From: an uncultured Erysipelotrichaceae bacterium
Lineage (GTDB): Bacteria > Bacillota_I > Bacilli_A > RFN20 > CAG-826
DNA: 64,000 bases
Assembly: GCA_902797855.1 (NCBI GenBank)
Contig: CADBUI010000017.1
Span: forward strand, 6,560 to 70,559
Reading direction: 5' to 3'
The position numbers and the translations under genes are program-made. Position 1 is the first letter of the stretch; each line of letters opens with the position of its first letter. This document shows positions 2,250 to 63,988 of the stretch, in pieces. The notes under the pieces are model-generated. The model was given only the letters and a program-made list of their open reading frames with translations, was not told where the DNA came from and ran no database searches.

Positions 2250-2291
2250 TTTCTTCCCCTTATTTTCTACTAATAAACTACTAATTTCTAA

Positions 2292-4474: not shown

Positions 4475-4476
4475 AA

Positions 4477-5349: not shown

Positions 5350-5350
5350 T

Positions 5351-5752: not shown

Positions 5753-5753
5753 T

Positions 5754-6200
5754 TTAACGACCTCCTAATATATCGTCTTGAAGTTTAAACATCTCTTTTT
5801 CGTCCTTCTCATTCATGTGATCATAACCAAGAAGATGAAGGAGACCATGAACAAATAAGAATGACATTTCTCTATTTAGAGAATGGCCATATTCTTTCGC
5901 TTGTTCTTCAGCCTTTTGATACGAAATAAGGATTTGCCCAAGTGATTTTGGAGCATCCCCTTTTACAAGGGACTCATTTTCATCGTCAAAGAAAGCGAAG
6001 CTGATGACATCAGTTGGACGATCGACACCTCTATATTCTTTGTTGATTTTGTGGATTTCTTGATTATCTATGATTGTGACATCGACAATATAATTATCTT
6101 TAATAGATAAAAATGACAATGTCTTCTTCATTAAGTCATTAAAGACTTTTTCGTAAGCACTATACTGTGCTGGTCCTAGATTCTCAAAATCAAGCTCCAT
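5754..6200 (-). CDS. ybeY: rRNA maturation endoribonuclease YbeY
   Basis: 148 aa. Metal-binding motif HGLLHLLGYDH. Confidence 0.92.
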   Translation of the reverse strand: MELDFENLGPAQYSAYEKVFNDLMKKTLSFLSIKDNYIVDVTIIDNQEIHKINKEYRGVDRPTDVISFAFFDDENESLVKGDAPKSLGQILISYQKAEEQAKEYGHSLNREMSFLFVHGLLHLLGYDHMNEKDEKEMFKLQDDILGGR

Positions 6201-6227
6201 AATTTGGGACTTAATTATAGCACACCT

Positions 6228-7424: not shown

Positions 7425-7549
7425 AATTTTACCTCCGAAAGAGAAGAAAGAAGGGCCAAACTAAGATAGATATATTGGTATGGATGAAAATGAGTTTTGG
7501 GATTGTTGATTATTTAAATGGACAATTCATTCCCTTTTTTCTTCCCTAT

Positions 7550-7634
7550 TACTTTATTGGGGTAAAGTTTCTAAAAAAGGTCCACTTTTTTGAAAAAAAT
7601 TTTTAAAATAAAAAAATGGAGACAAAGTCTCCAT
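7550..7634 (-). repeat. intergenic module, copy A (13-nt box TACTTTATTGGGG, a degenerate A/T-flanked hairpin, and the GGAGAC-AAA-GTCTCC terminator)
   Basis: The same 13-mer and the same 17-nt palindrome TGGAGACAAAGTCTCCA occur with almost identical spacing at 37904-37987. Confidence 0.55.
7605..7634 (-). terminator. rho-independent terminator downstream of rpsU
   Basis: Minus strand reads ATGGAGACTTTGTCTCCAT followed by TTTTTTTATTTT. Confidence 0.8.
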
Positions 7635-7658
7635 AATTTTGTCATAATCTTATTAATC

Positions 7659-13910: not shown

Positions 13911-15728
<1,818 letters not shown>

Positions 15729-15745
15729 TTATTTTCTCCTTTTAT

Positions 15746-16282
15746 TTATGCGTCCTTATTAGGTACGTTGTTTTCTTCTTTTTTAGGTTTGCCGCTTACA
15801 ACGACAATCGCTGGGCGAATTAAGTGTTCGTGAAGTTTATAGCCTTTAACTTTAACTTCAAGAACTGTGTTATCTTTTTGCTCGCTTTCTCTTGTTTCAA
15901 TCGCTTGCATGAATAATGGATCAAATAGGTCGCCCACCTTTGGTGAATATTCTTGTACACCCTCATTTTCAAGCACGCTTACAAGATTACGATAGATGTA
16001 TTCGAAGCCAACTAGGAAGTTTTTCATTTCTTCAGATTTAGCTTCATTTTGAAGAGCGAAGTGGAAGCTATCTAAGATTGGGATAAGTTCTTCAACGAAT
16101 CCTTCTACACGATACTTAATGGCTTCTTTATGATCTTTCTCCACTGCTTTACGGAGATTTTGCATATCCGCATAAGCACGGTAGTATTCATTTTTCCAAT
16201 GTTCTAAATCAGCTTTAAGTTTCTCAGTCTCGTTAACTTCAACTTTGTTTTCACTTTCAACTTTGTTTTTCTTTTCTTTCAC
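15746..16282 (-). CDS. grpE: nucleotide exchange factor GrpE
   Basis: Lies between hrcA and dnaK. GrpE-like coiled coil (LEHWKNEYYRAYADMQNLRK) plus a beta domain. The ORF-track start at 16339 falls inside hrcA. GTG at 16282, preceded by AAGGA, is the likelier start. The exact start remains uncertain. Confidence 0.85.
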   Translation of the reverse strand: MKEKKNKVESENKVEVNETEKLKADLEHWKNEYYRAYADMQNLRKAVEKDHKEAIKYRVEGFVEELIPILDSFHFALQNEAKSEEMKNFLVGFEYIYRNLVSVLENEGVQEYSPKVGDLFDPLFMQAIETRESEQKDNTVLEVKVKGYKLHEHLIRPAIVVVSGKPKKEENNVPNKDA

Positions 16283-40561: not shown

Positions 40562-40745
40562 TAAAATAAAAGCGTCCTAATTTAAGGACGCATTATACGT
40601 GGTACCACCTTAATTCATATCTATAATTAGATATGCACTCATTCGTTCATTAACGCTGAACTAACGAAATGTTCCCATTTAGCCTCGTAAGCGACATCAT
40701 TAGTGACTAACGTAGTGCTTCCACCATCCACTACTCTCTAATGTT
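40562..40745 (-). promoter_or_regulatory. T-box riboswitch leader (valine specifier) controlling valS
   Basis: On the minus strand, stem I base CATTAG...CTAATG encloses AGAGAG. The specifier loop GTTAGTCA carries GUC (40707-40705) followed by A. The T-box sequence AAGGTGGTACCACG lies at 40611-40598. The terminator GCGTCCTTAAATTAGGACGC plus TTTTATTTT (40591-40562) precedes the valS RBS. Confidence 0.85.
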
Positions 40746-40803
40746 AGTTTTACTAATGACCTCTTAGTCATCGGCGAGTTTTATTTTAGCAAGAGACATT
40801 AAA

Positions 40804-48397: not shown

Positions 48398-48970
48398 TTA
48401 TATTGTTTGACAAGCGATTAGATACTGATTTTCTAAACTATTTTTAATATCTTCCGATAATACAAAACTTTCATCATTTGTATATAAAGAGAAATAATTG
48501 ATATCTTTATCGCTCGAAGACAAAACAAATTCTCTTGAAAAATCAATATTTAAAGGAGAAACAAATATATAATTAACATTTTCTCTTTCTTTCCATACTA
48601 AGTTATTTACAGAATCAATTTTTATTTCATTAATATCCAAAAAAGTATTTACAAATGATAAACAATAGTGCATTGAAGATTTTTCATTATCAACCAAAAA
48701 TGCTCGTAAATATAATTGCTTATAATCATTAGTTTGACATCTAAATCCAGTAAGATGATAACTCTTATTTGAATCGCTAATAATGTTTGCATCAAAAGGT
48801 ACACGGTATTCTGGTACTGATAACGAATTATCAAAATCAATCATTTCGTGTAAAGAAGAGAATGAAAAATAATCTTGTATAGTTACACATCCATAATTAT
48901 CATTTGGAGAATTGTGACAAGAAACTAAAAAAACAAAAGAAAGTATATAAATAAACTTAAATTTATTCAT
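48398..48970 (-). CDS. lipoprotein, unknown function
   Basis: MNKFKFIYILSFVFLVSC has a signal peptide with lipobox LVSC. The start was set to ATG 48970, which overlaps the upstream stop within ATGAATAA. Confidence 0.7.
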   Translation of the reverse strand: MNKFKFIYILSFVFLVSCHNSPNDNYGCVTIQDYFSFSSLHEMIDFDNSLSVPEYRVPFDANIISDSNKSYHLTGFRCQTNDYKQLYLRAFLVDNEKSSMHYCLSFVNTFLDINEIKIDSVNNLVWKERENVNYIFVSPLNIDFSREFVLSSSDKDINYFSLYTNDESFVLSEDIKNSLENQYLIACQTI

Positions 48971-50621
48971 AATATTGTATCTCCAAATCACCAATTGATA
49001 ATCGCCCTTTATTTCTATCTCCGACAGCTTGATTCTGGAGAAAGAATTTTATGCCATAATAATCGTCATCAGTGGGCAAATCGAAAATGAATTTACTTCG
49101 ATTTGATCTACTGGTGTTCAATAAAAGAGAATGCAAATCAACAAAATTTAATATCCAGTTTCCAAACGAGTCCTTGCAAAAAATCCTCGCAACACCATCT
49201 GTTTGGTATTCATATTGACTCCACCATGCCAAATCAACAGACAATCTTTTGATCGGTTTATTGAAAGAAATTTCGAAATATGCATTTCCAGCGCCTTGCC
49301 TTCTTGGGGATAGATTAACAACTTCATCTTCTATATATCCAGTTCGAAGTCTATTTGTTGTGACATATAACTCGTTTTGCGAAAAATCTACTCGCTTGTT
49401 ATAGAAAAAATATTGAGATTGAAACCCCCAATCCGATGGTGTCATAAAAAATGTTTTGGAAGTTAATTGACCGCAGCCACAATAACAAGTATTGCTTGGT
49501 TGATGAACATAATTATCAGAATGTACATGAGGAACATAGTCAAAACAATAATCTAAACAATAACCACCATCGTTAAAAATGTTTTTTGGACATTTCGCAG
49601 TCGCGTGAGTGCCCAAATCACAGTAAAAACAATCATTATCATAACCGAAAATCACAACAGCGTGATTCCTTGCGCCTGCTATTACAGGTCTACCGTTATC
49701 TATTGCATATTCTATTGTATGGGTAACGTTATTGCCACAATTGTTAAAAAAACTATTAATATAATATGGACTTAATGCATTTTCTAAATAATTATTTAGA
49801 AGTTGCCTTGTATTATTTGCGGTTAATCCATTAGTGCGAGGGTCTATATATATTTCATTGATTGATTTTTGAATTAAGAAATTTTTAAACGAATCATTAT
49901 TGATTAGACCAATATGAGGAGAAGGATAAAATAAACTAAAGTCGTTGCTTGCGCTATTTCCAACCGACTTAATTTCCGCTTCTTCAGGGATAATGTTGTC
50001 GTTATAAAAAGTATCCCAATAATCTAAATAAATTTCCGAAGCGATTAGAGTACAAACATTTTCTTCTGGAGAAGCAAAACTATAATTTCCTCGCAAATGC
50101 TTGAAGAAAAAAACATTACCTATGGCATTTGAAATAGAATCAAATTGATGATTATAGAAAGTTCGATATGGAAAATCGCCTAAAAGATTCCATTCATCGA
50201 AAAGTGATGAAAATTGAACAATCGGAGTGTCTAGACAAACAAAAGAATAATTATTTGTATCGCAATAAAAATGATGACCATTATGGTATAGCAGATAATC
50301 TTCGTTTAAATAATATGAAAAAACATTATTATTATTCGAACCAAATTCTTCGACACTATATGTTGCTTTATTCAATAAAACAAATGAATCATCTGAAAAA
50401 ACGTACAGCCCGTATTGGTTACTTCCCTCGGGAGAATAAACATCTTTACTGATGATGGCGTCAGAAAGAACAAAATCATCATATCCAAAATCTATATTTT
50501 CATTTTCGATAAGTTGTTCACAAGAATTAGCAAAAATCATAGCATCTTCATAATATCCAGCAAGATTTGTTGATGCGCCTGGATAGAAGAGGGAGATAGC
50601 AGACAAAAACATTGTTAGCAT
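48963..50621 (-). CDS. putative secreted papain-fold (C39-like/C10-like) cysteine peptidase with a Cys-rich module and a C-terminal beta-rich domain
   Basis: 552 aa. Candidate nucleophile context ENVCTLIASEIYLDYW and candidate His context GARNHAVVIFGYDND. Cys-rich stretch CDLGTHATAKCP...YCLDYC...CYCGCG. The N-terminus is hydrophobic but lacks a basic n-region, and no clear RBS is present. Confidence 0.55.
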   Translation of the reverse strand: MLTMFLSAISLFYPGASTNLAGYYEDAMIFANSCEQLIENENIDFGYDDFVLSDAIISKDVYSPEGSNQYGLYVFSDDSFVLLNKATYSVEEFGSNNNNVFSYYLNEDYLLYHNGHHFYCDTNNYSFVCLDTPIVQFSSLFDEWNLLGDFPYRTFYNHQFDSISNAIGNVFFFKHLRGNYSFASPEENVCTLIASEIYLDYWDTFYNDNIIPEEAEIKSVGNSASNDFSLFYPSPHIGLINNDSFKNFLIQKSINEIYIDPRTNGLTANNTRQLLNNYLENALSPYYINSFFNNCGNNVTHTIEYAIDNGRPVIAGARNHAVVIFGYDNDCFYCDLGTHATAKCPKNIFNDGGYCLDYCFDYVPHVHSDNYVHQPSNTCYCGCGQLTSKTFFMTPSDWGFQSQYFFYNKRVDFSQNELYVTTNRLRTGYIEDEVVNLSPRRQGAGNAYFEISFNKPIKRLSVDLAWWSQYEYQTDGVARIFCKDSFGNWILNFVDLHSLLLNTSRSNRSKFIFDLPTDDDYYGIKFFLQNQAVGDRNKGRLSIGDLEIQYYE

Positions 50622-50954: not shown

Positions 50955-51528
50955 TGCTTTCTTTCTCCTTTTCTTCTATAGAAGAATTATTTGCTTCAAG
51001 GGCTTCTTTTTCTTGAGCTTCCTTTTCTAGTCTTTCCTCTTCTTGTTCTTTTCTTACTTCTGCTTCAAGTTTAAGGAATTCTGGAATTGGATAGAAATAG
51101 TGATAAATACCTTCGAAGGTATAATCAATAGCGATATAGATAAAGACGATGATAATTCCATATTTAAACCAACTATAAGCTTCAATGCCTAAATAGTAAT
51201 CAGCGTTCCAATTCACAAGTGAAATAATGTCATAGGTAAGTAGATATATTCCAATTGGAAGATGGATACATTTATCTAAATAGCAAGTTCTACTTCTTCT
51301 TTTCTTAGAAAGCGTTGCCCAAAGAAAATCACCAATAATAAGTAGTCCACCAGCAAGGGTAACAAAGTTAAAGATGGTTGATTTGATAAAATTATCGCTT
51401 CTAAGAACATCAGTGAACTTTAATATGATTAAAACGATGAAAACAATGGCAATCAAAAGAAATTCGCCAGAATAGACAAGCTTAGCTTTTTTAACTGGAT
51501 CCATCTTTTCTTTTTTTGCTTTTGCCAT
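50947..51528 (-). CDS. 4-TM membrane protein with an acidic coiled-coil tail
   Basis: 193 aa. Its start shares one base with the stop of the upstream PII-like gene (TAATG). The tail is EAEVRKEQEEERLEKEAQEKEALE. Confidence 0.6.
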   Translation of the reverse strand: MAKAKKEKMDPVKKAKLVYSGEFLLIAIVFIVLIILKFTDVLRSDNFIKSTIFNFVTLAGGLLIIGDFLWATLSKKRRSRTCYLDKCIHLPIGIYLLTYDIISLVNWNADYYLGIEAYSWFKYGIIIVFIYIAIDYTFEGIYHYFYPIPEFLKLEAEVRKEQEEERLEKEAQEKEALEANNSSIEEKEKESND

Positions 51529-51866
51529 TATTTATTTTCCTCACTTGTGCCTTGCTCAAATTTTAGTCCAGTAACGGATTCAACAGGTAAAGAGAAGGCT
51601 ATGCCTTGTCCATCTGTTCCTAGTCCAGCAGCTTTATAAATCGCTGACATAACTTTATCGCGAATCTTAACGTTAACTAAAATCATGACCATTTCTTTAT
51701 TTGGAGTAATTACAATTCCAAATTTCTTTTCCATTTCTTTAGTGCCTGTTCCACGAGCGTGGATGATTGTCCCACCTCGTGCACCTTCTTCACGAGCAGC
51801 GTCCATCACGACTTCAGAGAAGCCTTGATTAACAAGTGCGATAATTAATTCAAAATTATTTGCCAT
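51528..51866 (-). CDS. PII-family (GlnB-like fold) signal transduction protein
   Basis: 112 aa. ELIIALVNQGFSEVVMDAAREEGARGGTIIHARGTG...MVMILV...GIAFSLPVESV follows a beta-alpha-beta ferredoxin-like PII pattern. Confidence 0.7.
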   Translation of the reverse strand: MANNFELIIALVNQGFSEVVMDAAREEGARGGTIIHARGTGTKEMEKKFGIVITPNKEMVMILVNVKIRDKVMSAIYKAAGLGTDGQGIAFSLPVESVTGLKFEQGTSEENK

Positions 51867-51876
51867 AAGTTAACTC

Positions 51877-52287
51877 CTATTCTTGAGAATTACTCAAAAA
51901 TTCATATAGTCTCACTCCAATAAGTGAGGTTAAAGGAATGGAAAATCCGATTCCGCGAATTGATTTATTAAGGTTAAAGAAGTTATCAAGTTCTTTAGTA
52001 ACTTCGTTAACTATCTCTTTTCTAATAAGAGAAAGAACAACTTCTTTTTCATTATCTTCGATACCAAGAATTTCTCTTATTTCTTTAACGGCTGTTCCTT
52101 CACCCATTTGAACAAATTGAGCAGATGCTCCCATCTTTTCAAATAGACGAATAACTGGTTGAGAAAATCCTCTATCTACGATAGTGATATAAAGTGAAAG
52201 CTTTTTAATATCATGCTTTTCTTCATATTTAGGTTGAAGTTTTGTTTTTACTTCTTCGTTTTTCTTTTTTCTAGAAAATAATCCCAT
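51877..52287 (-). CDS. divergent PII-like protein (paralogue of 51528-51866)
   Basis: 136 aa. LSLYITIVDRGFSQPVIRLFEKMGASAQFVQMGEGT aligns by eye with the neighbouring PII-like protein. Confidence 0.55.
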   Translation of the reverse strand: MGLFSRKKKNEEVKTKLQPKYEEKHDIKKLSLYITIVDRGFSQPVIRLFEKMGASAQFVQMGEGTAVKEIREILGIEDNEKEVVLSLIRKEIVNEVTKELDNFFNLNKSIRGIGFSIPLTSLIGVRLYEFLSNSQE

Positions 52288-52298
52288 TTACCTAACTC

Positions 52299-53870
52299 CT
52301 AAAAATGAATGATTTGAGCGTCTTCCTTAGAGTAAGAGATAGTGCGCATTGAAGAAGATGCGACGTATGTCTTGATCTTTTGGCTCACTCCAAGAAGTTG
52401 AATAGCAATAACAGGAGTTAAAGCAATTAAAGCAATAACCCCAAATGATTGATTATAGTAATCTGCACTTGCTCCAAAAGCAGTTGAGGTTATACCCACT
52501 ACCATTGGAAGAACAAATGAAGAGGCCATTGGACCTGAGGCTGTTCCTCCTGAGTCAAAGGCCATTGCAGTAAATATATCTGGACAGATAAACATAAGTC
52601 CAAGAGAGATAATATATCCAGGAATCATGTAATACATGATTGAGAAATTAAATAATGTTCTAATGACCGCTAAAGCGATTGCAACACCTACTCCTAAAGA
52701 AAGAGTTAATAAAACCGTAATCTTTTTAACTGAACCATCGCTGATTTTTTCCATTTGAATAGTTAAAACATGTACTGCTGGTTCACAAAGAATAGTGACT
52801 AAACCAATCACAAAAGCAATGATAATAATTAACCAATTAGATTGTTGCCCAAGCATTGAGCCAACATAATATCCTAGTGGAGTCATCGCTGCACTTGTGC
52901 CACATAGGAAAATAGTTAATCCAATATAGGCATATAAGAAACCAAATAATAAAGATTTAATCTTTTTAATTGGTAGATGCATAAAGATGAAATTATAGAT
53001 TAAGAAAATCACTAAAGTTGGAGCGATAGCAATAATAACTTCTATAGAAGTTCCAAGTGTAAACCCTCCATTATTCGTGTTAGGAATAAGGGCATTCATA
53101 AATGTCATGAAAATATTACTTGTGGCCTCTTCCATCGAGGTATATTGAGGAATATAGTTTCCATCAACCGGAGCAATGGCAAGAAGGATTGCAACTGTTA
53201 AAATAGGTCCAATTGAGGCCATACCCACTAAACCAAAGCTATCATTTTGAGATGATTTACCACCACGCACGATAGCGATACCCGCGCCTAAAGAAAGAAT
53301 AAATGGAACAGTCGCGCTTCCAGTGGTGACTCCTCCACTATCAAAGATAAATGGTAAAAAACTAGCTTTTAAAGGATCCATAACAATGAATGTTAAAAGC
53401 ATAAATGTTAAAGCGTAGAAAAGTAGATACCAAAGTTTAAGTGAGCGATGGAAGATAATTCTAAGAACACCAATAACAACAAATAAGCCTACTCCAAGAG
53501 CAATTCCACCAACAAGTAAGACACCATTAATATTAACTTGTTTAGAAACAATCATGATTGATGGTTCTGCTACTGTAATAAGAGCGCCTAAAGCAAACGC
53601 AAATAAACAAACGATAAATAAATTCTTTTGTTTAGAAAGTGATGATCCCATATATTCACCTACTTTAGTAAGTGAACGAGATGCACCAATTTGGAAGATA
53701 GTTAATCCAGCGATTAAAACAATCATTCCAATCAATAATAAAAGATAATCACCACGGTTAAAATTTAGCGGAGCGAGTCCTACTAATGAAAGTATAATAA
53801 CAATCGCTATTATTGGAGCGATTGATAAGGTTGATGTGATTAATGCTTGAACGTGTCTATTTTTAAGCAT
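52299..53870 (-). CDS. polytopic membrane protein, DUF1538-type (putative transporter partnered with PII-like proteins)
   Basis: 523 aa with 12 or more TM helices and two internally similar halves (FDSGGVTTGSATVPF and FDSGGTASGPMASSF). The family name is recalled from this motif and gene context and is not verified. Confidence 0.6.
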   Translation of the reverse strand: MLKNRHVQALITSTLSIAPIIAIVIILSLVGLAPLNFNRGDYLLLLIGMIVLIAGLTIFQIGASRSLTKVGEYMGSSLSKQKNLFIVCLFAFALGALITVAEPSIMIVSKQVNINGVLLVGGIALGVGLFVVIGVLRIIFHRSLKLWYLLFYALTFMLLTFIVMDPLKASFLPFIFDSGGVTTGSATVPFILSLGAGIAIVRGGKSSQNDSFGLVGMASIGPILTVAILLAIAPVDGNYIPQYTSMEEATSNIFMTFMNALIPNTNNGGFTLGTSIEVIIAIAPTLVIFLIYNFIFMHLPIKKIKSLLFGFLYAYIGLTIFLCGTSAAMTPLGYYVGSMLGQQSNWLIIIIAFVIGLVTILCEPAVHVLTIQMEKISDGSVKKITVLLTLSLGVGVAIALAVIRTLFNFSIMYYMIPGYIISLGLMFICPDIFTAMAFDSGGTASGPMASSFVLPMVVGITSTAFGASADYYNQSFGVIALIALTPVIAIQLLGVSQKIKTYVASSSMRTISYSKEDAQIIHF

Positions 53871-54481: not shown

Positions 54482-54525
54482 AAAAAGAAAAAGAGGACCT
54501 ACACAAATGTGTAGGCCCTTTTCTT
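54481..54525. terminator. bidirectional terminator between the peroxidase gene and the lipoprotein gene
   Basis: GGACCTACACA-AA-TGTGTAGGCCC (one mismatch), flanked by an A-run and TTTTCTT. Confidence 0.75.
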
Positions 54526-54536: not shown

Positions 54537-55766
54537 TTATGGATAAAGGACTTCTCCAGGTTTTCCAGCTGAACCAGTAGCACTGCTAGAAGATTCGCCT
54601 TCCCCAGGATTAGGTACGCCTGCAGAAAATAGATAATCTTTATATTTTGCTAAATCATTGGCAACCATATATTCAAACGACATTGCGTTTCCACCATAGT
54701 GTTTTGTCCATAAAGTTGAATATCCTCCTTTTCCACCATCACCAGCGCGCACTCCAAGAGACTTATATATACCTGCGACACGAGTGTCTTTACTAAATGG
54801 GTAGTTACCCATCATACCATCATTAACATCTTTTGCGTTTGCTCCTGCTCCACCAATAAGAGCTACTTTTCCTAGCGACATACTATCTACGGAGATGGTA
54901 TTTAGAATAAAGTTGGCTTCAATAGCAAATTTACTTGATTCATCGATGACTGAAGGTCTATTTAAATCAGTTTCTCCTCCACTACCAGCTTGAATACTAA
55001 CACCACCGTTAGTGTCACTAACGAAGATAACATTTTTCATCCTTGCTAATGCTGGACAAGATTTTCCTGCATAAAGCGAAGAATGTCTAGATAAATGGAA
55101 GAAACAATTAAAATTAGCTTTTCCTAAATAATTAAACACTGGTGCAAATGAAGAATAATCATCCGTCTTAATATATGAATTAAAATAACTTGCGTCTAAA
55201 TAGATATGAAGATCTTCAATTCTATTAGCGATATCAAATGTATATCCATCATAATTCCAGTTGTTAAATCTTACTTCATCAGTGTCTCTACTGATTTGGT
55301 AGTGATATACATCTTTAGCGTCCTCACTCTTTTTATAAAAATCATCATGAGTGATTACTTTTGGATTGTCTTTTGTGACAGGTTTTTCTATCTTAGTTAC
55401 TTCACTTGTTTTAAGTAACGATGCTTCACTCATATCCGTGAGACTAGAGGCGTTATAGTATTTAATAACAACATTATCAAGAAGATAATCACTTGTGTTA
55501 ACTTTCACAAAGTTATCTCTAGATAAATCTGACACGAAGTGTTCACTTGTGCCATCATTATTAAGTTTATCTCCTTCAATAATGTAGGCATTTGAAGTAT
55601 CAAATATATCCCATGTTAGATAATCTCCAACCTGCATGATTTCAGTGTTTGCTTTTCCACTAGTGAATAATAATCCTGGATCAAAATTAAATAGTGAGAC
55701 TCCACAGCTAGTTAAAAGAAATGGAGTAACAACTAATAATGAGGTTTTAACAAATATCTTTTTCAT
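54537..55766 (-). CDS. lipoprotein with a Gly-rich C-terminal region (third gene of the TIR operon)
   Basis: MKKIFVKTSLLVVTPFLLTSC has lipobox LTSC. The C-terminus includes GGAGANAKD...GDGGKGGYSTLW...GEGESSSSATGSAGKPG. The start lies 5 nt after the TIR gene stop. Confidence 0.7.
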   Translation of the reverse strand: MKKIFVKTSLLVVTPFLLTSCGVSLFNFDPGLLFTSGKANTEIMQVGDYLTWDIFDTSNAYIIEGDKLNNDGTSEHFVSDLSRDNFVKVNTSDYLLDNVVIKYYNASSLTDMSEASLLKTSEVTKIEKPVTKDNPKVITHDDFYKKSEDAKDVYHYQISRDTDEVRFNNWNYDGYTFDIANRIEDLHIYLDASYFNSYIKTDDYSSFAPVFNYLGKANFNCFFHLSRHSSLYAGKSCPALARMKNVIFVSDTNGGVSIQAGSGGETDLNRPSVIDESSKFAIEANFILNTISVDSMSLGKVALIGGAGANAKDVNDGMMGNYPFSKDTRVAGIYKSLGVRAGDGGKGGYSTLWTKHYGGNAMSFEYMVANDLAKYKDYLFSAGVPNPGEGESSSSATGSAGKPGEVLYP

Positions 55767-55771
55767 AATTA

Positions 55772-58700
55772 CTACTCCTCTTTGCTAATATTTAGTCCAA
55801 TTAAAACAGAAATAAGGACAGGTATACCTGCTGCAATTACAATGCAAACTAAACAAGCCATAAACGAAAGTGGCAAGATAAAGTATTTATCTTTGAACAC
55901 TTCATAATTGATTAAACAAATTCTAAGTAAGGCCATACCAATTAAGAATCCAACAATTGAGCCACCTTCAGTTAGAAATAATAGTCTATAGGTTTTGATG
56001 CGGCTTCTAAAAAACATCGCAACTACTTGAGCAATGAGTCCAAGGACACATCCTATAACTGACATAACTGCGATTTCACCATGTTCATCAGTGCCTTCAA
56101 ATGTGAAGACATCATTAAGAATGAAATATCCAAATACAAAGGCCACAGCAAATAAGATTGGCATTAGATAGTTAATTACTCCTGCGAATAATTTTTGCTT
56201 TTTAAAATGAGTGAACTGGAAGTCTCTAAAGAGAATGAAATTCACTAAGATAAGAAGCCCAAAAATACCCGCTACTATTAAGGCAGCATAAAGTGCTTCA
56301 AAGAAGAAAGCGATAATAGGTACGCCTAGCGTAATAATAACCATATACACGATTGGTATTACATTCGCGAGAACAAGAGACGCTGAATGTGAACTTCTAG
56401 CGGACAAAGAATGATTTCGACCGTGTCTTTTGCTTCTAACTCTTTTAGATGTGCTTTCGGATAAATAAACTCCACTAGAAAGATTAGCTAAAACTTGTTC
56501 TATGGAATCATCTTCTGGTAGATCAGCATCAAGAAGTTCTTTGTTTCGTTCTTTAAATACTGAGGCAAATCTTTTATATTGTTTTCCGTTTTTAATATTA
56601 TTAATCGCGGTGTAAAACTTAAGATAAACGTTTTCAGGAAGAGCGTTTCCTTCTTTTTCTTTAAGCGCGTAATATTTATTAAGTAAAACCTTGAAACTAG
56701 AAAGATCTCCAATGCTACCTTTATAGAAAAGTAGGCTATAGTTAGTTGGAGACTTGGCTTCACATTTTGTAAGTCCCCATCTAGCTTCTAAGTTATCTTC
56801 ATCATTCGCGAGGATTTCATTAAAGTATTTACTTGCTTCTTCGTAGTCTTTTTCAATTAAGAAACGATTACCGCTCTTAAGAAGTAAATTTAGATAATCT
56901 TCATGAGAGATTTTTGCACTTCCACTCATCTCAATGAGTGTCTTAATAATTAGTTTAGCGAGGCCAATCTTTTTAGGGTTATTGACCATAATAAGAGCGC
57001 TTTTTAGTAAGAGGGTGAATTTATTATCTTCACTACTAAGATTAAATTTCGCACCTCCAGAGATAAGTTTAACGATAATATAGTAAATATTATCTTCATT
57101 TCCTTCTAAAGAAGGAATGTTATTTAAATCAAATGTTCTAAAGTGCTTGATAGTTAACTTATCTGCTAAAGCGAAACTATTATCATCTCCACCATGACGA
57201 ATGATGAATTCACTCCAAAGAGCTTCTTTATTATATTCATCAATACCTAGGATGACTTTGTTAAGTCTAGAGGCAAATTTAAATAGATATGCGGAGAGAT
57301 ATCTTCTTGATACTCTGTTATATAGTTTAATGATTAATCTCGCGCCTTCTTCTTCGTAGTTAGAATAAAAACGCTTAAATACTTTTAAAAGTATAGTTTC
57401 AATATCTTTATCATCTAAACAGTTTGGTCTTTTAGCGAGTTTTCTATCAACTTGGTCAATAAATGGTTCTTCAAATAATTTAATCTTTTCAAGCATGACT
57501 TCTTTATCATTAAATGAAGACATCACTGATAAAAAGAAATCATTTTTATCGTTAAGAATTTTAAGGAAGACTCTTGGCTTTTGACTTAGTGATTTCACTA
57601 AAAGCTCAGTCATAATATTAGATAATTCAAGAGCATCTTCTTTTTTAGCAACAACGATAGTGTTATAGAAATCTTGAGAGATTCTATCGATATTATATGG
57701 ATTTAATTCAGCATCCATTAAAGATGATTTCCAAGGCAAAAATAAATCACATTTTAGCTTTGCTAAGTTAGCGTTATAGTTATGTGGATTTGTCTCAGTA
57801 ATCTTACTTAATCGCTCATATGCTTTAGCGTATGATTTAAGAGTATTAGTCTCCATATCGCTAGTGGCGACTTCAAATTCAATCTTCTCAGAATAATCAA
57901 GATCGGTTTCCTTAAATCCTTTAAATGATTGAGTGGAAATATTTTCCGCGGTGGTTTTAAGTTTTTTAATTGATGTATCAAGAGTGACGTTTTGGAACTG
58001 TGAACGTTTCTCAACGCGGATAATATTTTTAAATCTCGCATTAGTGATTTGATAGAATTCTTCATTTAATGGAAGAGCTTCAAATTTCTTTAACGCAGTT
58101 GGAAGTCTATCAACTTTAAATCCACCTTCTAAAACAGGGATAAGAAGGAGTTTTTCTTTAGAGGTTTCCACTCTTTTTTTGAATCTCATCCATTCAGATT
58201 TTACCCAAGGGGAATTGAGGTATTCTTTATTTGGAGAAGCACACACTAAAATAAATATTTTAGCGGACATAAGTGCGCTATAAATAATAGGTTCAAAAGC
58301 TTCACCAAATCTTTCTTCGTGGAGAGTTTTTTGAGCAAGGAAACATTTTAGTCCCCAGCTTGTAAATTTATCGTATAGTCTACGAGCGACTTCACTATCA
58401 TTTGTAGGGACACCATTATCTTGTCTTTTATAAGAGATAAAGACATCATAAGGTTCCTCTTCTTTCATTAAATCGATAGCCTCCATTCTGAGTTTATCGA
58501 TTTGAGTGAGAGACTGATTATAGTATTCAAGTGTTTCTGGATTATCTTTTAAGATTTCACATAGTGTCTTGTAATAATGCTTATCAAAGATAGATTCATC
58601 ATGAACTAAGTTTAAAATTGGAACTTCTCTAGTGGTGTTTCCATCTTCATCCACAAAAGAAATACCATATTCACATAAAAGAAGTTGATAATAGGCTTGA

Positions 58701-58942
58701 GCGTTCTCTTTATCTTTAGAGATAACATCTTCAAGGATAATTGCAGCTTGTTCAAAATCACAAGCATTTCTTAGTTCAATTGCTTCGTTTAGTTTTTCTT
58801 GATATTTACTGGTGTATAAGTCTTTTGATAATTCTTTAACTGAAATATCTTTATGACAATATTTACATTTAACAATATCGTCATTTTGTGAAAAGAGAAG
58901 TTCTCCACCACAAAATGGACAAGCGTGAGTTAATTTCGCCAT
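55772..58942 (-). CDS. zinc-ribbon / TPR-like / TIR-domain protein with a long helical region and a C-terminal ~6-TM membrane domain
   Basis: Start set to ATG 58942 (MAKLTHACPFCGG..., with a GGGGG RBS). Zinc ribbon CPFCG...CKYC. TIR-like block YDVFISYKRQD...KIFILVCASPNKEYLNSPWVKSEWMRFKK (about 58058-58453). The C-terminal ~215 aa form multiple hydrophobic helices. Confidence 0.8.
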   Translation of the reverse strand: MAKLTHACPFCGGELLFSQNDDIVKCKYCHKDISVKELSKDLYTSKYQEKLNEAIELRNACDFEQAAIILEDVISKDKENAQAYYQLLLCEYGISFVDEDGNTTREVPILNLVHDESIFDKHYYKTLCEILKDNPETLEYYNQSLTQIDKLRMEAIDLMKEEEPYDVFISYKRQDNGVPTNDSEVARRLYDKFTSWGLKCFLAQKTLHEERFGEAFEPIIYSALMSAKIFILVCASPNKEYLNSPWVKSEWMRFKKRVETSKEKLLLIPVLEGGFKVDRLPTALKKFEALPLNEEFYQITNARFKNIIRVEKRSQFQNVTLDTSIKKLKTTAENISTQSFKGFKETDLDYSEKIEFEVATSDMETNTLKSYAKAYERLSKITETNPHNYNANLAKLKCDLFLPWKSSLMDAELNPYNIDRISQDFYNTIVVAKKEDALELSNIMTELLVKSLSQKPRVFLKILNDKNDFFLSVMSSFNDKEVMLEKIKLFEEPFIDQVDRKLAKRPNCLDDKDIETILLKVFKRFYSNYEEEGARLIIKLYNRVSRRYLSAYLFKFASRLNKVILGIDEYNKEALWSEFIIRHGGDDNSFALADKLTIKHFRTFDLNNIPSLEGNEDNIYYIIVKLISGGAKFNLSSEDNKFTLLLKSALIMVNNPKKIGLAKLIIKTLIEMSGSAKISHEDYLNLLLKSGNRFLIEKDYEEASKYFNEILANDEDNLEARWGLTKCEAKSPTNYSLLFYKGSIGDLSSFKVLLNKYYALKEKEGNALPENVYLKFYTAINNIKNGKQYKRFASVFKERNKELLDADLPEDDSIEQVLANLSSGVYLSESTSKRVRSKRHGRNHSLSARSSHSASLVLANVIPIVYMVIITLGVPIIAFFFEALYAALIVAGIFGLLILVNFILFRDFQFTHFKKQKLFAGVINYLMPILFAVAFVFGYFILNDVFTFEGTDEHGEIAVMSVIGCVLGLIAQVVAMFFRSRIKTYRLLFLTEGGSIVGFLIGMALLRICLINYEVFKDKYFILPLSFMACLVCIVIAAGIPVLISVLIGLNISKEE

Positions 58943-58996
58943 AATTTTCCCCCTGATAATAGAAAGATTCACCTTAAAGTGAATCAATCTAGAAAA

Positions 58997-60109
58997 TTAA
59001 AGTTCTTTACCGCAGTGTGGGCAGTATTTTCCTTTGGTTTTAATTGTCTTACCACAGTGTGGGCAAGATCTTTCTAATTCTTCAAGTTGGGCTCCACAGA
59101 CTGAGCAGAATGTTTGACCGTTTTCGATTGGTGCGCCACATTTTGGACAAAACGCTGCGCTTTTCTTAGTGTCTTCTTTCTTGTCAGCTTTTTCCCATCC
59201 AAGGATTTTAACGACTTCAAGATACTTATCGTAATCTTCACGTTTTAAACCGATGAGATATTTTTGTCTCTCCCAATTCTTATCATCAAGACGTTCAAGT
59301 TCACTTGCGATTTCTTTCGCGTCTTTTTTGAACTTCTCTTCATCTCTATTATCTTTAAGATATTGTTCAATTTCTTTACGTTTTTCTTCATCAATGAAGA
59401 ATTCTTCAATCGCAAATAATGGGACAAATAATCCATATTGTTCATTTAGCATTTCTGAAATGGTTGGTTGAATTCTTTCAGCGATTTCAAGTTCGTGAAG
59501 AGGAATATCAATATAACCGAGGTGAAGTTCATGAAGAACTTTTACGAATTCGTTCTTAATTACTTGTAAGACGAAGGAATTAACTCTTTCGAGTAGTTTA
59601 TCCATTGAGAAATCACGGTCACTACCAACAAGTCTTTCATGGAATTTAGCAACATCAGCGATTCTAATATCGTATTTACCTCTACCCTTAATATCGACAG
59701 GTATTTGAGTTTCTGGATCACGATATGGAATTGGTGAAGATGTTCCCCAGAATCCTTCATATGTTAGTGATGGGTTATAAACAATAACATCCACCACAAC
59801 AGCTTCTTTGAGTTTAGCTTTACCAAATAAGCCTTTAGAGATGTCTCCTTTTTCATAGATATCATATTTACCAGCGGAAAGAACTCCGCTAGAAATACCA
59901 TCTTTAATGATGACGGCTTTGTTTGGGCCGGAGATGATAATTTGAGCATCTGGTTCTCTAATATCACCATACACACGATAGAACAATCTATCGTTAGAGT
60001 TTTCAAGTCTAATCTTCCTAACGTTTTCAGGAAGTCTTAAAACATCATCCTTTCCCATCGATTTAGGATCAACGAGAAAAGTTTCAACAGGTTTATTTTT
60101 CTTAAACAT
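58997..60109 (-). CDS. SPFH-like (YdjI/COG4260-type) protein with C-terminal double zinc ribbons
   Basis: Start set to ATG 60109 (MFKKNKPVETF..., with an AAGGGGG RBS). The N-terminal ~250 aa resemble the YdjI-type SPFH-like fold. The C-terminus carries CPKCG...CSVCG and CPHCG...CPHCG. Confidence 0.65.
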   Translation of the reverse strand: MFKKNKPVETFLVDPKSMGKDDVLRLPENVRKIRLENSNDRLFYRVYGDIREPDAQIIISGPNKAVIIKDGISSGVLSAGKYDIYEKGDISKGLFGKAKLKEAVVVDVIVYNPSLTYEGFWGTSSPIPYRDPETQIPVDIKGRGKYDIRIADVAKFHERLVGSDRDFSMDKLLERVNSFVLQVIKNEFVKVLHELHLGYIDIPLHELEIAERIQPTISEMLNEQYGLFVPLFAIEEFFIDEEKRKEIEQYLKDNRDEEKFKKDAKEIASELERLDDKNWERQKYLIGLKREDYDKYLEVVKILGWEKADKKEDTKKSAAFCPKCGAPIENGQTFCSVCGAQLEELERSCPHCGKTIKTKGKYCPHCGKEL

Positions 60110-60134
60110 ATTTGCCCCCTTGTTTGATAAATAC

Positions 60135-60163
60135 ATTATATAGGCGCATATGCGATATTTCAA
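60135..60163 (-). promoter_or_regulatory. near-consensus sigma-A promoter of the SPFH-TIR-lipoprotein operon with a palindrome in the spacer
   Basis: Minus strand reads TTGAAA (60163-60158), 17 nt, TATAAT (60140-60135). The spacer contains the perfect 10-bp palindrome CGCATATGCG (60145-60154). Confidence 0.65.
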
Positions 60164-61627: not shown

Positions 61628-62086
61628 TTATTCCTCAAGTTCTCTAATGATTGTCTTCCTTTTTTGTATCTTACGAGAAAATACAACACTTCTTACCACA
61701 AAGCAGGCAACGCCCATAGCAACAAAGAAAATAAATAAGCCTAATCCAAATGAGAACATCATATAACCTGCCACCCAATTTGGATTAACCTCCCCATAAG
61801 AATATGTATTAACGTGATAGACTTCTTCGTTAGAAAATTTAATAATTCCAAAGACCATTAAAACTATAAATCCAACAGCGATAGCAAAGCTAACGATACC
61901 AAAAACAAGCATCATTCTTTGTCTAGCTTCTAAGACTTTTATTTCTTCTTCAAGTTCACTAACACTATATCTTTCCTTTAATATAGCGTTTCTTGATTTA
62001 GCTTCTTCTTTGATGAGTTTTTCACCACAGTTTGGACAGAATTTAGATTCTTCTTTAAGTTCCGCTCCACATTTTGGACAATTCAT
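61628..62086 (-). CDS. zinc-ribbon membrane protein
   Basis: MNCPKCGAELKEESKFCPNCGEKL followed by two TM helices. 152 aa. Confidence 0.65.
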   Translation of the reverse strand: MNCPKCGAELKEESKFCPNCGEKLIKEEAKSRNAILKERYSVSELEEEIKVLEARQRMMLVFGIVSFAIAVGFIVLMVFGIIKFSNEEVYHVNTYSYGEVNPNWVAGYMMFSFGLGLFIFFVAMGVACFVVRSVVFSRKIQKRKTIIRELEE

Positions 62087-62208: not shown

Positions 62209-62285
62209 GCCCTCATAGCTCAGCTGGATAGAGCATCTGCCTTCTAAGCAGAGGGTCGAACGTTCGAGTCGTTTTGAGGGCGCCA
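62209..62285 (+). tRNA. tRNA-Arg (anticodon UCU), CCA encoded
   Basis: Acceptor stem GCCCTCA/TGAGGGC and D-arm TAGCTCAGCTGGATAGAGC. Anticodon stem TCTGC/GCAGA with loop CTTCTAA (anticodon TCT). T-arm GTCGAACGTTCGAGTCG... and 3' GCCA. Confidence 0.92.
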
Positions 62286-62291
62286 CTACTG

Positions 62292-62324
62292 AAAAAATTG
62301 AGTCTTGCAAAGACTCTTTTTTTT
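62292..62324. terminator. bidirectional terminator after tRNA-Arg and after the NERD gene
   Basis: GAGTCTT-GCA-AAGACTC flanked by AAAAAA and TTTTTTTT. Confidence 0.8.
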
Positions 62325-63042
62325 ACATTTTGACGAACTTAATATATTTACATGTTGGATAGTTTGGACATAAATATATCACACCATTTGGCCTATCGCT
62401 GCTTAACAATTTAGCTCCACAATATGGGCAAACATCATTAACTTTTGATTTCTTATACTCTCTAATATTTTTAATATGTTCGACATCTGAAAGATCACTA
62501 TTATATGATTCAATCACATCTGCAACATTATTGATTTCTTCACTTGTTAATATTACTCCATTATCAAAATTGTCTAGGTACTCTTTTAAGTCTCTAACGT
62601 TTATAACGTTACTACTTGCAATGCTCGCCGCATTATCATTCGCCATAACAATAATTGAATTAACATTATAACGATCGCCTAAAATATTTCTAAGTATTCG
62701 GCAATGAGCCTCATTTTGCTTAATAGGATTAAAATGTTGATAAATCTCGCCATCAGATAATATTTGCGTCCATTTGAAGCTGTTCTGATCACCAATTATA
62801 GTTCCTTTCAAACTTTTGGTTTCAATACAAAATATTCCGTTTTTTCTGATTTCTACGTGATCAATTTGGTGACTATGTCCGTTCTTATCAATAATAATCA
62901 AGTTGTTAATTGTGCGATGGACAAGTTTTTTATCAGGATCATAATTAAGTACAACACGAACTTTCGCTTCACCTATAGTACCGTGTCTCCTGGCGCGATA
63001 TGGTCTAGTAGCAGTTTTGATAACTCTTCTTAAGATCCTCAT
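62323..63042 (-). CDS. NERD (nuclease-related domain) protein with a C-terminal topoisomerase-type zinc ribbon
   Basis: 239 aa. GTIGEAKV...QIDHVEIRKNGIFCIETKSLKGTI...FNPIKQNEAH fits the NERD pattern. The C-terminus is CPYCGAKL...CPNYPTCKY. Confidence 0.8.
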   Translation of the reverse strand: MRILRRVIKTATRPYRARRHGTIGEAKVRVVLNYDPDKKLVHRTINNLIIIDKNGHSHQIDHVEIRKNGIFCIETKSLKGTIIGDQNSFKWTQILSDGEIYQHFNPIKQNEAHCRILRNILGDRYNVNSIIVMANDNAASIASSNVINVRDLKEYLDNFDNGVILTSEEINNVADVIESYNSDLSDVEHIKNIREYKKSKVNDVCPYCGAKLLSSDRPNGVIYLCPNYPTCKYIKFVKM

Positions 63043-63106
63043 ACTTTTTATTATAAAAATTTAGTTAATAATCCCAAATAGAAATATTAAATGTTATGCT
63101 AATAAT

Positions 63107-63988
63107 ATGGATATAATCAGGATAATTCATTACGTATCAAGCAATAGTAACGACACAGTTTTATATGCGTTACTTGGCATATTCTTCATTGCGCCTGCTG
63201 TCTTATCGATAATCGCCTTGATTATAGTTTTAATCATCTATATTCCTTTTAAAAAATATAGAGAATTTGTTTTGAATCATAGTATAGCTATCAAAAATCT
63301 CACAAAACTTAATTCAAAATACAAATTTGGTCATGCGCCTTGGAAAGAATACACCAAGGCTTACGATAACCAGGATTTTTACAACGATATTTCAACTCTA
63401 GACTATTTAATCTATCAACTTCAATATGATCAAAAAGAGATAAAAGCATCTATCCAAAAAGCGTTAAACAATAAAACGCTTTATGCTGCCTACATGAAAG
63501 ATGTAAAAGAGATTAATAAATTAGGAGAGTATGATGCGCCCATAGAAAAGCTAAACAGAGAAAAACTAATAAAAGTAGAAAATAAGCAATTCGATAGATT
63601 GATCAAGACACCTGATATAGATTTTAAAGTGAAAGTAGTTTTGGTTTTAACCAAAATCAATGATGCATACGTTACTTCAAAAACACATAGTTATTCTCCA
63701 GAAGAAATATCTGAAATAATCAAAAGACTCAACCAAAAAAGAGGAAATTATTACTTAAATAAAGAAATTTGGGACGCAATATGTAGAGTGGAAAGAGGCA
63801 AAGTCACTAATAAACTAAGATTTTACATTTACAATCGAGACCACAACCGATGTAGATACTGCGGTAGTACAAGAAATCTTGAAGTTGATCATATTATTCC
63901 TATATCTAAAGGTGGCAAAAGTACTCCCGACAATTTACAAACTCTCTGCCATAAATGTAACGTTAAAAAGGGAACTGATATATATTGA
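63107..63988 (+). CDS. membrane-anchored HNH endonuclease
   Basis: 293 aa. N-terminal TM helix (LLGIFFIAPAVLSIIALIIVLIIYIPF). C-terminal HNH: NRDHNRCRYCGSTRNLEVDHIIPISKGGKSTPDNLQTLCHKCNVKKG. Confidence 0.85.
   Translation: MDIIRIIHYVSSNSNDTVLYALLGIFFIAPAVLSIIALIIVLIIYIPFKKYREFVLNHSIAIKNLTKLNSKYKFGHAPWKEYTKAYDNQDFYNDISTLDYLIYQLQYDQKEIKASIQKALNNKTLYAAYMKDVKEINKLGEYDAPIEKLNREKLIKVENKQFDRLIKTPDIDFKVKVVLVLTKINDAYVTSKTHSYSPEEISEIIKRLNQKRGNYYLNKEIWDAICRVERGKVTNKLRFYIYNRDHNRCRYCGSTRNLEVDHIIPISKGGKSTPDNLQTLCHKCNVKKGTDIY

Follow-up and report, generated by a model that had tools for sequence, protein, structure and literature searches.

A soluble SPFH protein paired with a membrane-anchored TIR protein: a divergent branch within a large family of gut Bacillota operons

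The question

What could a TIR domain be doing in a six-helix membrane protein whose gene stands directly behind that of an SPFH protein? The question is raised by an operon of three genes, here called g1, g2 and g3, in a stretch of 64,000 nucleotides (nt) from an uncultured Erysipelotrichaceae bacterium (GenBank assembly GCA_902797855.1, contig CADBUI010000017.1, positions 6,560 to 70,559 of the forward strand). We refer to this whole stretch as the window, and coordinates are those of the window unless another locus is named.

The TIR domains of SARM1, SPARTA TIR-APAZ and TIR-STING are NAD-cleaving effectors activated by oligomerisation. To our knowledge, the known bacterial TIR systems sense infection in the cytoplasm and act through soluble or simple membrane effectors. 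The initial annotation of the operon saw in it a candidate undescribed TIR system, in which a membrane-anchored TIR protein and a membrane-scaffold protein would sense membrane perturbation or bring about abortive infection. We find that the operon forms one divergent branch within a very large family of operons in gut Bacillota, which combine an SPFH protein, a protein with four transmembrane (TM) helices and a zinc-ribbon TIR protein. As to what it does, we favour, at a probability of roughly 45%, a TIR NADase module that is coupled to the membrane, organised by the SPFH protein, and serves defence or envelope surveillance.

The operon and its three proteins

The operon consists of three co-directional minus-strand open reading frames (ORFs) in the order g1, g2, g3, with gaps of 54 nt and 5 nt. 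The features on which the argument is built are the following.

58997..60109, minus strand: g1, SPFH (Band_7_1) protein of 370 amino acids (aa), ATG start; from Pfam and hydropathy
59000..59152, minus strand: double zinc ribbon of g1, four CxxC pairs, residues 320-370; DZR E=1e-10, also Zn_Ribbon_1
55772..58942, minus strand: g2, 1056 aa, ATG start; zinc ribbon, helical region, TIR domain, TPR solenoid and six TM helices
58856..58921, minus strand: N-terminal zinc ribbon of g2, C8, C11, C26 and C29 (CPFCG..CKYC, residues 8-29)
58070..58444, minus strand: TIR domain of g2, residues 167-291; Pfam TIR_2
58193..58195, minus strand: codon of Glu250, the putative catalytic Glu of the W246-x3-E250 motif; from the minus-strand translation
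56762..56890, minus strand: TPR unit of g2, residues 685-727; TPR_19 E=1.8e-7 (match at residues 695-727)
55778..56389, minus strand: C-terminal six-helix membrane domain of g2, residues 852-1055; from hydropathy and AlphaFold2 (AF2) helices
54537..55766, minus strand: g3, lipoprotein of 409 aa; lipobox LLTSC, Cys21 codon at 55704-55706
60135..60163, minus strand: promoter-like site TTGAAA-17-TATAAT upstream of g1, 11/12 consensus matches
54494..54519, minus strand: bidirectional intrinsic-terminator-like hairpin 3' of g3, 11 pairs (6 GC) and a T-run

The promoter-like site is the top-scoring one of the region, as a consensus match only, and downstream of it come a Shine-Dalgarno sequence (AAGGGGG) and the ATG at 60109. 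This ATG is the true start of g1; the longest ORF, 58997-60163, opens with TTG and overlaps the promoter. Promoter-like sites as a class are no commoner in the region (29) than in shuffled sequence (25.7), so only the position and the quality of the g1 site count. The hairpin, also a consensus match only, scores as a terminator on the plus strand too (54498-54515), with T-runs on both strands, and it sits between g3 and a convergent glutathione-peroxidase (GSHPx) gene. The three minus-strand genes with their gaps, the near-consensus promoter (60163..60135) and the bidirectional terminator downstream had all been part of the initial annotation, and all of them were recovered when we re-read the ORFs and scored these signals.

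Residues 54-250 of g1 match Band_7_1 (PF13421, E=2.9e-16), and are followed by a charged coiled-coil linker and then by the double zinc ribbon. Hydropathy finds no hydrophobic segment and no TM helix in g1, and no solved structure for it turned up by sequence. Thus g1, already described as SPFH-like with four CxxC pairs, is a soluble SPFH protein of the YdjI/SamI type with a C-terminal double zinc ribbon. YdjI/SamI of Bacillus subtilis likewise has an SPFH domain, no TM helix and a zinc finger at the C-terminus, and the membrane proteins YdjG/H recruit it into a membrane stress sensor (PMC8581546; bioRxiv 10.64898/2026.02.06.704340). The likeness of g1 to the SPFH protein of the PspA-YdjGHI/SamGHI system (SPFH domain, no membrane anchor, zinc finger at the C-terminus) is one of build. 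It extends to the neighbour, since g1 adjoins a membrane protein that, as YdjG does, opens with a zinc ribbon; what sets this partner apart are its TIR domain and TPR solenoid, and with no PspA_IM30 match among its proteins the operon is not that of PspA-YdjGHI.

That partner is g2. Its TIR domain matches Pfam TIR_2 (PF13676) with E=1.1e-10 and 42.5 bits (cut-off 28). In the AF2 model, which has a mean predicted local distance difference test score (pLDDT) of 78, the TIR region reaches about 80-90, and residues ~350-830 form an all-helical solenoid with pLDDT mostly >85. Foldseek aligns the TIR region with the SARM1 TIR (9mw1_B) at probability 1.0, target TM-score 0.65 and root-mean-square deviation 4.1 over 158 columns, and also with the SPARTA TIR; the matches include 8qlp_E and 8isy_B. 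The solenoid resembles TPR superhelices such as those of Ski3, IFT-A and OGT. By sequence, the nearest PDB entry to g2 is an oyster TIR-STING fusion (6wt6, E=1e-6), and Glu250 of g2 aligns with the conserved Glu of the S-x-W-x3-E helix in TIR-STING and in Toll-like receptors (TLRs). Positions 58178-58210 of the minus strand translate to PWVKSEWMRFK, which puts the codon of Glu250 at 58193-58195, where the initial annotation had placed the retained Glu.

How constant are these residues? The four zinc-ribbon Cys, W246, E250 and W251 are invariant in 26/26 homologs, as seen in two alignments (A1, with 12 full-length relatives, and A2, with all 26 matches), which were collected independently of the W-x3-E motif. 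The TIR domain of g2 has thus retained the catalytic W-x3-E signature known from TIRs that cleave NAD, and g2 is a putative NADase. The distribution of charges over the loops and a Lys/Arg-rich stretch before the first TM helix indicate a topology with both N- and C-terminus inside and only short loops outside. We conclude that the zinc ribbon, TIR domain and TPR solenoid of g2 face the cytoplasm, and that six TM helices anchor the protein. The annotated architecture (about 1056 aa with a zinc ribbon, TPR-like helices and a TIR block, then helical repeats and about six C-terminal TM helices) agrees with Pfam, AF2 and Foldseek throughout. For residues ~164-295, chosen beforehand as the place where the TIR assignment could be refuted, both the TIR_2 profile and the SARM1 structure give a clear match.

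With the TIR NADases activated by oligomerisation (SARM1, SPARTA, TIR-STING) g2 shares the TIR fold and the Trp-x3-Glu. It differs from them in having no Argonaute, STING or ARM/SAM partner; instead its TIR domain is fused to a zinc ribbon, a TPR solenoid of ~500 aa and six TM helices, and is paired with an SPFH protein, and its NADase activity is putative.

The third protein, g3, carries Gly-rich motifs next to its lipobox, as expected of the Gly-rich lipoprotein that had been annotated, and Cys21 is invariant among its homologs. It matched no family in Pfam, NCBIfam or PADLOC, and HMMER found only 7 relatives among 1.84 billion representative proteins. Its AF2 model (pLDDT 79, predicted template modelling score 0.82) is all-beta, an FN3-like sandwich with a Gly-rich domain resembling a beta-solenoid. 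Foldseek gives weak matches only, to pectate lyase (E=1.9e-3) and to FN3, and these do not yield a function for g3, despite the confident model. The g3 homologs whose contexts we read are encoded directly downstream of TIR giants, and one of them (L099) has a fused C-type lectin domain, Lectin_C. We thus describe g3 as a fast-evolving surface lipoprotein, a near-orphan. No NfeD family was found by Pfam in g2 or g3, which sets the operon apart from SPFH-NfeD pairs.

The SPFH-TIR pair as the constant core of the subfamily

Among 5.8 billion proteins, a word-based search returned about 12 full-length relatives of g2, with 31-92% identity; the remaining matches cover the N-terminal 250-400 residues only. 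For this g2 subfamily, the gene order was read in ten lineages.

SPFH, TIR, g3: window, L093, L091
SPFH, trypsin-like protease, TIR, g3-like: L003, L089, L094, L101
SPFH, TIR, g3-like fused to a C-type lectin domain: L099
SPFH, TIR, unrelated gene: L090
SPFH, protease, TIR: L006

The SPFH and TIR genes are co-directional neighbours in 10/10 lineages, g3 is present in 8/10 and a protease gene in 5/10. So the three genes, whose co-conservation the initial annotation had left to be checked, do travel together, with the qualification that only the SPFH-TIR pair is universal and that g3 is an accessory gene confined to the g2 subfamily. The frequent fourth component is a trypsin-like protease (Trypsin_2) with a zinc ribbon; it has no counterpart in the window, where the operon contains no protease gene. 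In the relatives this protease is cytoplasmic, keeps the His/Asp/Ser triad, and begins with a CPxCG...CxxC zinc ribbon like that of g2. A serine protease gene directly after the SPFH gene in 5/10 lineages recalls HflK/C-FtsH and stomatin-NfeD. The differences are that this protease is a cytoplasmic, trypsin/HtrA-like enzyme tagged with a zinc ribbon rather than NfeD/ClpP or FtsH, and that the window has no protease.

We observe very different rates of evolution along the operon. Identity within the subfamily is 51-61% for g1. Between L091 and the window, it is 87% for g1, 98% for the TIR domain of g2, 35% for its TM domain and 54% for g3. In distant lineages the TIR domain still has 52-60% identity to that of the window, and the TM domain 8-15%. 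The TIR domain is the most conserved part of g2 and the six-helix TM domain the least, and the evolutionary rate climbs towards the cell exterior.

A very large family around the window

Is the operon a rarity? A sequence pattern scan over one genome per GTDB species finds at least 591 stretches that encode the zinc-ribbon, helical and TIR module. Those listed are mostly from Clostridia and Bacilli, with a few from Bacteroidota, Coriobacteriaceae and Sphaerochaetaceae. From these, 80 loci were kept and analysed by calling and clustering their ORFs, and 70 of them had a called TIR ORF. An SPFH gene with a double zinc ribbon, of the same cluster as g1, is present in 50/70 loci, always on the strand of the TIR gene (50/50) and at a median gap of 737 nt. 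Among loci with at least 5 kb on each side the SPFH gene is found in 16/22. That one SPFH subfamily should come to lie beside TIR genes at such a rate by chance seems implausible to us.

A second partner, which we call C2, is encoded in 43/70 loci, between the SPFH and TIR genes. It is a protein of ~233 aa with four TM helices and the motifs RYSDP and RNxxCK, and it has no family in Pfam. Usually the SPFH gene comes first, followed by C2 and by one or several TIR genes. We take as members of this wide family those loci with a co-directional gene for an SPFH protein with a double zinc ribbon within ~3 kb of a gene for the zinc-ribbon, helical and TIR N-terminal module, and the window, where the SPFH-TIR gap is 54 nt, is one of them. 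It differs from the majority form in having no C2, a six-helix TM domain, no ectodomain, and g3. C2 was found neither in the window nor in any g2-subfamily locus that was read. We considered the six-TM domain of g2 as a fused copy of C2 and ruled this out (hhalign probability 6%). The operon was thus rightly annotated as undescribed insofar as no PADLOC model matches it; it is no stand-alone oddity, being one branch of an apparently unnamed family of at least 591 stretches.

The same association is seen when starting from g1. A zinc-ribbon TIR gene is present in two of the three contexts of g1 homologs that were read (L101 and L100), and the contig of the third (L102) ends first. L101 (g1 identity 51%) has an operon of SPFH, protease, TIR and g3-like genes. 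In L100 (36%), the SPFH gene is followed by genes for three coiled-coil proteins, an AAA+ ATPase and BrxL, and then by that of a zinc-ribbon TIR protein; in L102 (31%), genes for three proteins with coiled coils and for a double AAA+ ATPase come between the SPFH gene and the contig end.

We add an observation on these last two loci. The coiled-coil proteins, of ~110-200 aa, and the classic AAA+ ATPase lie after the SPFH gene at 8162-12591 in L100 and at 8039-11578 in L102. The ATPase matches Vps4_C in L102, and in PADLOC it is IetA/TRIP13-like. As ESCRT-III or PspA proteins the coiled-coil proteins were not accepted, since the sole match is a faint one to Snf7 (E=0.48), which we keep as a lead. 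Possibly, a module like ESCRT-III/Vps4 is linked here to the SPFH-TIR pair.

Receptor-like relatives

The wide-family relatives of g2 are built differently beyond the TIR domain. Among 99 wide-family TIR proteins, 48 have a single TM helix near residues 500-600, which is followed by 200-650 residues; among the remaining ones, 23 have several helices and 23 have none. Lys+Arg amount to 6.9 before the single helix vs 1.75 after it, with the excess before the helix in 48/48 single-TM proteins. The positive-inside rule is thus kept in all 48, and this places the TIR domain in the cytoplasm and the C-terminal part outside.

What are these outer parts? A scan of 69 C-terminal parts (48 post-TM and 21 from proteins without a TM helix) finds DUF6273 in 36/69, BspA-type leucine-rich repeats (LRR_5) in 7, and RCC1 in 7; FNIP, Flg_new or RHS repeats also occur. 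With its C-type lectin fold, DUF6273 is known from proteins of gut phages, where it binds receptors as a variable domain that is diversified by diversity-generating retroelements (PMC10743442, PMC11792537). Tandem arrays of 2-4 zinc-ribbon TIR paralogs occur in 22 loci, and within them the N-terminal 300 aa are conserved and the C-terminal ectodomains differ. As examples from L010-L088, such arrays lie at 4143-12501 in L011, 1724-13783 in L039, 7986-17446 in L048 and 7980-14106 in L086.

Some operons of the wide family hold further genes. A gene for a tyrosine recombinase of 280 aa stands directly upstream of the SPFH gene in L017, L037, L040 and L069, and a recombinase next to tandem arrays could mean mobility or a shufflon-like variation of the ectodomains. 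Longer multi-TM proteins replace or supplement C2 at 2429-3937 in L053, 8494-9807 in L023 and 6552-7940 in L033. The one in L053 has a multi-TM N-terminus that by eye is C2-like, and a DUF6273 lectin-fold domain at its end; to judge from this fusion, the C2 partner, too, may carry the ectodomain. Finally, proteins with the same zinc ribbon (MKQLxCEMCG...CQSCG) and TPR-like helices, and no TIR domain, are encoded inside operons, and may be regulators or decoys of the zinc-ribbon TIR proteins. They lie at:

L023, 7893-8477: TIR-less zinc-ribbon/TPR-like protein
L025, 4493-5548: TIR-less zinc-ribbon/TPR-like protein
L069, 3333-4664: TIR-less zinc-ribbon/TPR-like protein
L070, 7043-7936: TIR-less zinc-ribbon/TPR-like protein
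L077, 7059-7967: TIR-less zinc-ribbon/TPR-like protein

With an LRR or lectin-fold ectodomain, one TM helix and a cytoplasmic TIR domain, these relatives of g2 resemble TLRs. Their polarity is reversed, with the TIR domain N-terminal, and g2 of the window has no ectodomain. The resemblance is presumably one of independent domain assembly and not of common descent. The nearest conceptual parallel is in plants, where the SPFH protein HIR2 organises receptor signalling at the plasma membrane (PMC13534476). Could the family as a whole be a widespread unnamed class of transmembrane TIR receptors, with a lectin, LRR or RCC1 sensor, a TM segment, a cytoplasmic NADase TIR domain and an SPFH scaffold, that would provide Toll-like outside-in immunity? 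We put this forward as a bold proposal, and an unlikely one.

A membrane-coupled TIR module?

The module that we favour would work as follows. Having no membrane anchor of its own, g1 would be recruited to the membrane by g2, in parallel to YdjG/H and YdjI, and candidate contacts are the zinc ribbons, which g1, g2 and the optional protease all have. There g1 would build g2 into an oligomeric SPFH platform in which the TIR domains are held apart or inactive. A disturbance of the envelope, for which phage adsorption, DNA injection and membrane damage are possible triggers, would be sensed by the fast-diverging TM domain together with g3, and in the wider family by the lectin, LRR or RCC1 ectodomains. 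The platform would then rearrange and let the TIR domains associate with one another, NAD+ would be hydrolysed in the manner of SARM1, SPARTA and TIR-STING, and the cell would arrest or die (abortive infection). Such a module would resemble both the TIR NADases activated by oligomerisation and the pairs of an SPFH scaffold with its client. The window version would be a reduced form, with neither four-TM partner nor protease, and with the ectodomain supplied in trans by g3; we propose this last point because the window lacks both C2 and an ectodomain, and because one g3 homolog carries a lectin domain.

For defence speak the catalytic signature of the TIR domain, the tandem paralogs with their exchanged ectodomains and the quickly diverging outer parts of relatives, the tyrosine recombinases directly upstream in 4 loci, and the genes found in and around some members. 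As an example, the L094 operon is flanked on one side by genes for SoFic (1.9e-28), an NsnB/AriA-like ATPase (9e-49) and a dGTPase (1.5e-26), and on the other side by that of a PDC-S09 nucleotidyltransferase. In L100, genes for an IetA-like AAA+ protein (4e-37) and for BrxL (1.4e-174) lie between the SPFH and TIR genes. Genes embedded in other members encode SIR2_2 (5 loci), DUF2971 (4) and weakly HEPN-like proteins (3), and the protease of the subfamily resembles the protease modules of retron type XI and Lamassu. The L094 surroundings (192-7646 and 14592-16094) have the look of a defence island, in which the NsnB/AriA-like ATPase (AAA_15) has a 350-aa partner and the dGTPase-like protein is an HD protein.

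A number of points weigh against this reading, and we gather them here. The NADase activity of g2, its trigger and its outcome are all things that we infer. Docking by zinc ribbon is suggested by the shared presence of the ribbons, and the embedded SIR2, DUF2971 and HEPN-like proteins are without them; as a universal adaptor on embedded effectors the zinc ribbon was rejected, since the trypsin-like, TIR and TIR-less TPR proteins carry it and those three do not. The ORF and TM calls in the wide-family loci are crude in-house ones, and the wide family was fished with the motif WVK[NS]EW, so that the conservation of its Glu is partly by construction. No model in PADLOC-DB v2.0.0 (which includes 2TM-1TM-TIR, CBASS, Pycsar, SpbK and the PDC/HEC candidates) fits g1-g3, and the top scores are LmuB for the coiled coil of g1 (E=1.2e-3), PDC-S66 for g2 (4.7e-3) and none for g3. 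A Pfam census of 142 genes flanking wide-family operons finds mostly metabolic and housekeeping genes, with only 3 integrases and 2 Fic genes standing out. The loci of the window, L003 and L006 lie among core genes (EF-P, topoisomerase IV, FtsZ, RuvB, RNase HII), and the locus is syntenic in a relative with 92% identity (L093); for both these reasons it looks more like a resident chromosomal function than like a mobile defence island. And tblastn at E<=1e-8 finds no match in 72,556 plasmids or 50,697 phages.

Some of these tests also dispose of simpler answers. A plasmid- or phage-borne module is ruled out by the tblastn result and by IMG/VR, where there are only 3 matches in 2.9 million contigs. 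A general defence-island setting of the wide family was rejected on the flank census, and with housekeeping flanks the argument for defence has to be made from embedded genes and single loci. A named defence system was rejected on the PADLOC result, in which the three proteins have no significant match to any named system, together with the best NCBIfam similarity of g2, to Thoeris type III ThcB4, which covers the TIR core only and stands at 33 bits vs a cut-off of 220. The module first proposed, one for membrane sensing or abortive infection, was broadly of the right kind and too narrow in scope, and its role in defence is a point that we infer.

Other readings of the operon

Could the operon have nothing to do with immunity? 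It might encode a complex for envelope stress or homeostasis, an elaboration of SamGHI/YdjGHI, in which the TIR domain would serve for oligomerisation or as an NAD-linked regulator (of dormancy or envelope repair) and not as a killer. That g1 has the build of YdjI/SamI (SPFH, no TM helix, C-terminal zinc finger; PMC8581546) is what one would expect in this case, as are the mostly housekeeping flanks and the synteny with the 92% relative. The coiled-coil trio and the AAA+ protein with Vps4_C behind distant relatives of g1 also hint at an ESCRT-III/PspA-like repair, with the reservation that the Snf7 match is faint (E=0.48). Yet the strict WxxxE signature is typical of enzymatically active immune TIRs, in relatives the TIR gene is repeated in tandem as 2-4 paralogs that differ by swapped ectodomains, and divergence is very fast in the parts that face outward. 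Relatives also co-occur with genes for BrxL, IetA-like, SIR2, SoFic and dGTPase proteins, and the window operon has no PspA gene. On balance, we regard such a complex as rather unlikely.

A Thoeris-like signalling system would have the TIR domain of g2 make a signal of the cyclic ADP-ribose type, and the effector would be the TM domain of g2 acting as a pore, or a C2 or SIR2-like protein encoded elsewhere. A bacterial TIR domain in a short operon is indeed a feature of Thoeris (ThsB with a ThsA-type effector, types I-VIII), SIR2_2 is embedded in 5 related loci, and ThcB4 is the best NCBIfam similarity. Moreover, many bacterial TIRs are signal generators (bioRxiv 10.64898/2025.12.03.692087). 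The ThcB4 score is far under its cut-off, however, and g1-g3 contain no SLOG, Macro, STING or CARF-like domain. The window has neither C2 nor SIR2, and the TM domain of g2 is so little conserved (8-15% identity) that it fits an anchor or a sensor better than a gated effector. The window also has no ThsA-type effector (SIR2-SLOG, Macro-TM) or signal-binding domain, no Thoeris model of PADLOC fits, and the absence of ThsA, SLOG, cyclase and STING partners that the initial annotation remarked on is confirmed. Judging by its predicted domains the operon is not a member of Thoeris, and signalling of this type seems quite improbable.

Least probable, and to us very improbable, is a surface receptor for non-viral ligands (glycans, mucus, other bacteria), with the SPFH protein organising receptor nanodomains like plant HIR proteins: the lectin-fold, LRR, RCC1 and Flg_new ectodomains of relatives, the Lectin_C domain on the g3 homolog of L099 with polysaccharide-synthesis genes adjoining it, the gut or rumen origin of all members and the plant precedent (PMC13534476) would suit such a receptor, but the operons share no conserved downstream transcription factor or kinase, g2 of the window has no ectodomain, and several members have defence-type genes embedded in them.

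Other features of the window

The window comes from a rumen metagenome; its low G+C content (~34%) and genetic code 11 fit Bacillota. At 61628-62086 on the minus strand, 1.5 kb upstream of the operon, a protein of 152 aa is encoded that has a zinc ribbon at its N-terminus (Zn_Ribbon_1, E=6.6e-9) and two TM helices. The theme of zinc ribbon plus membrane is shared with YdjG, and the gene is not beside the operon in other lineages. Beyond it lie:

62209-62285: tRNA-Arg(TCT)
62323-63042, minus strand: protein with NERD and a topoisomerase-type zinc ribbon
63107-63988, plus strand: HNH endonuclease with a TM N-terminus

The NERD protein has a weak PADLOC similarity to the PglW N-terminus (1.4e-6), and the HNH protein to PtuB/REase HNH (~1e-6 to 1e-7). 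The tRNA gene may mark a small islet (62209-63988) of a mobile or defensive kind.

On the other side of the operon, the minus strand encodes, at 51528-53870, a membrane protein of the DUF1538 family with 523 aa and 13 hydrophobic segments, then a protein of 136 aa and a member of the P-II family; L093 keeps their order. A 552-aa ORF at 48963-50621 (minus strand), rich in Asn, Tyr and Cys and with no Pfam family, is missing between the same flanks in the otherwise syntenic L093, which marks it as a strain-variable insertion. An 850-aa ORF at 37997-40549 is preceded, at 40581-40780 (minus strand), by a T-box leader (Rfam RF00230, 104 bits); this leader is consistent with a Bacillota-type genome.

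What the family would mean

The SPFH scaffold is apparently an undescribed partner of TIR proteins, and the one that distinguishes these systems. We found no literature linking bacterial SPFH proteins with TIR domains, in a library that omits much of the subscription literature; in a systematic survey of TIRs from 2025 the words SPFH, flotillin, stomatin and zinc never occur.

If the function were housekeeping surveillance of the envelope, the operon would link NAD metabolism with SPFH proteins and ESCRT-like membrane repair. If on the other hand the relatives are outside-in receptors, threats such as phage adsorption and injection would be detected before, or independently of, cytoplasmic cues, and SPFH proteins would be immune-receptor platforms, as has been suggested for plant HIR proteins. 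An SPFH-scaffolded TIR protein with lectin and LRR relatives would add a membrane or extracellular route of sensing to bacterial immunity, and the Band_7_1 SPFH proteins, which are poorly understood, would gain a concrete client. Such a TIR protein would also parallel, in prokaryotes, both the SPFH-organised immune receptors of plants and the ectodomain-TM-TIR layout of TLRs. With at least 591 stretches the family is frequent among Bacillota of the gut and rumen, and it may therefore shape phage-host dynamics in these microbiomes.

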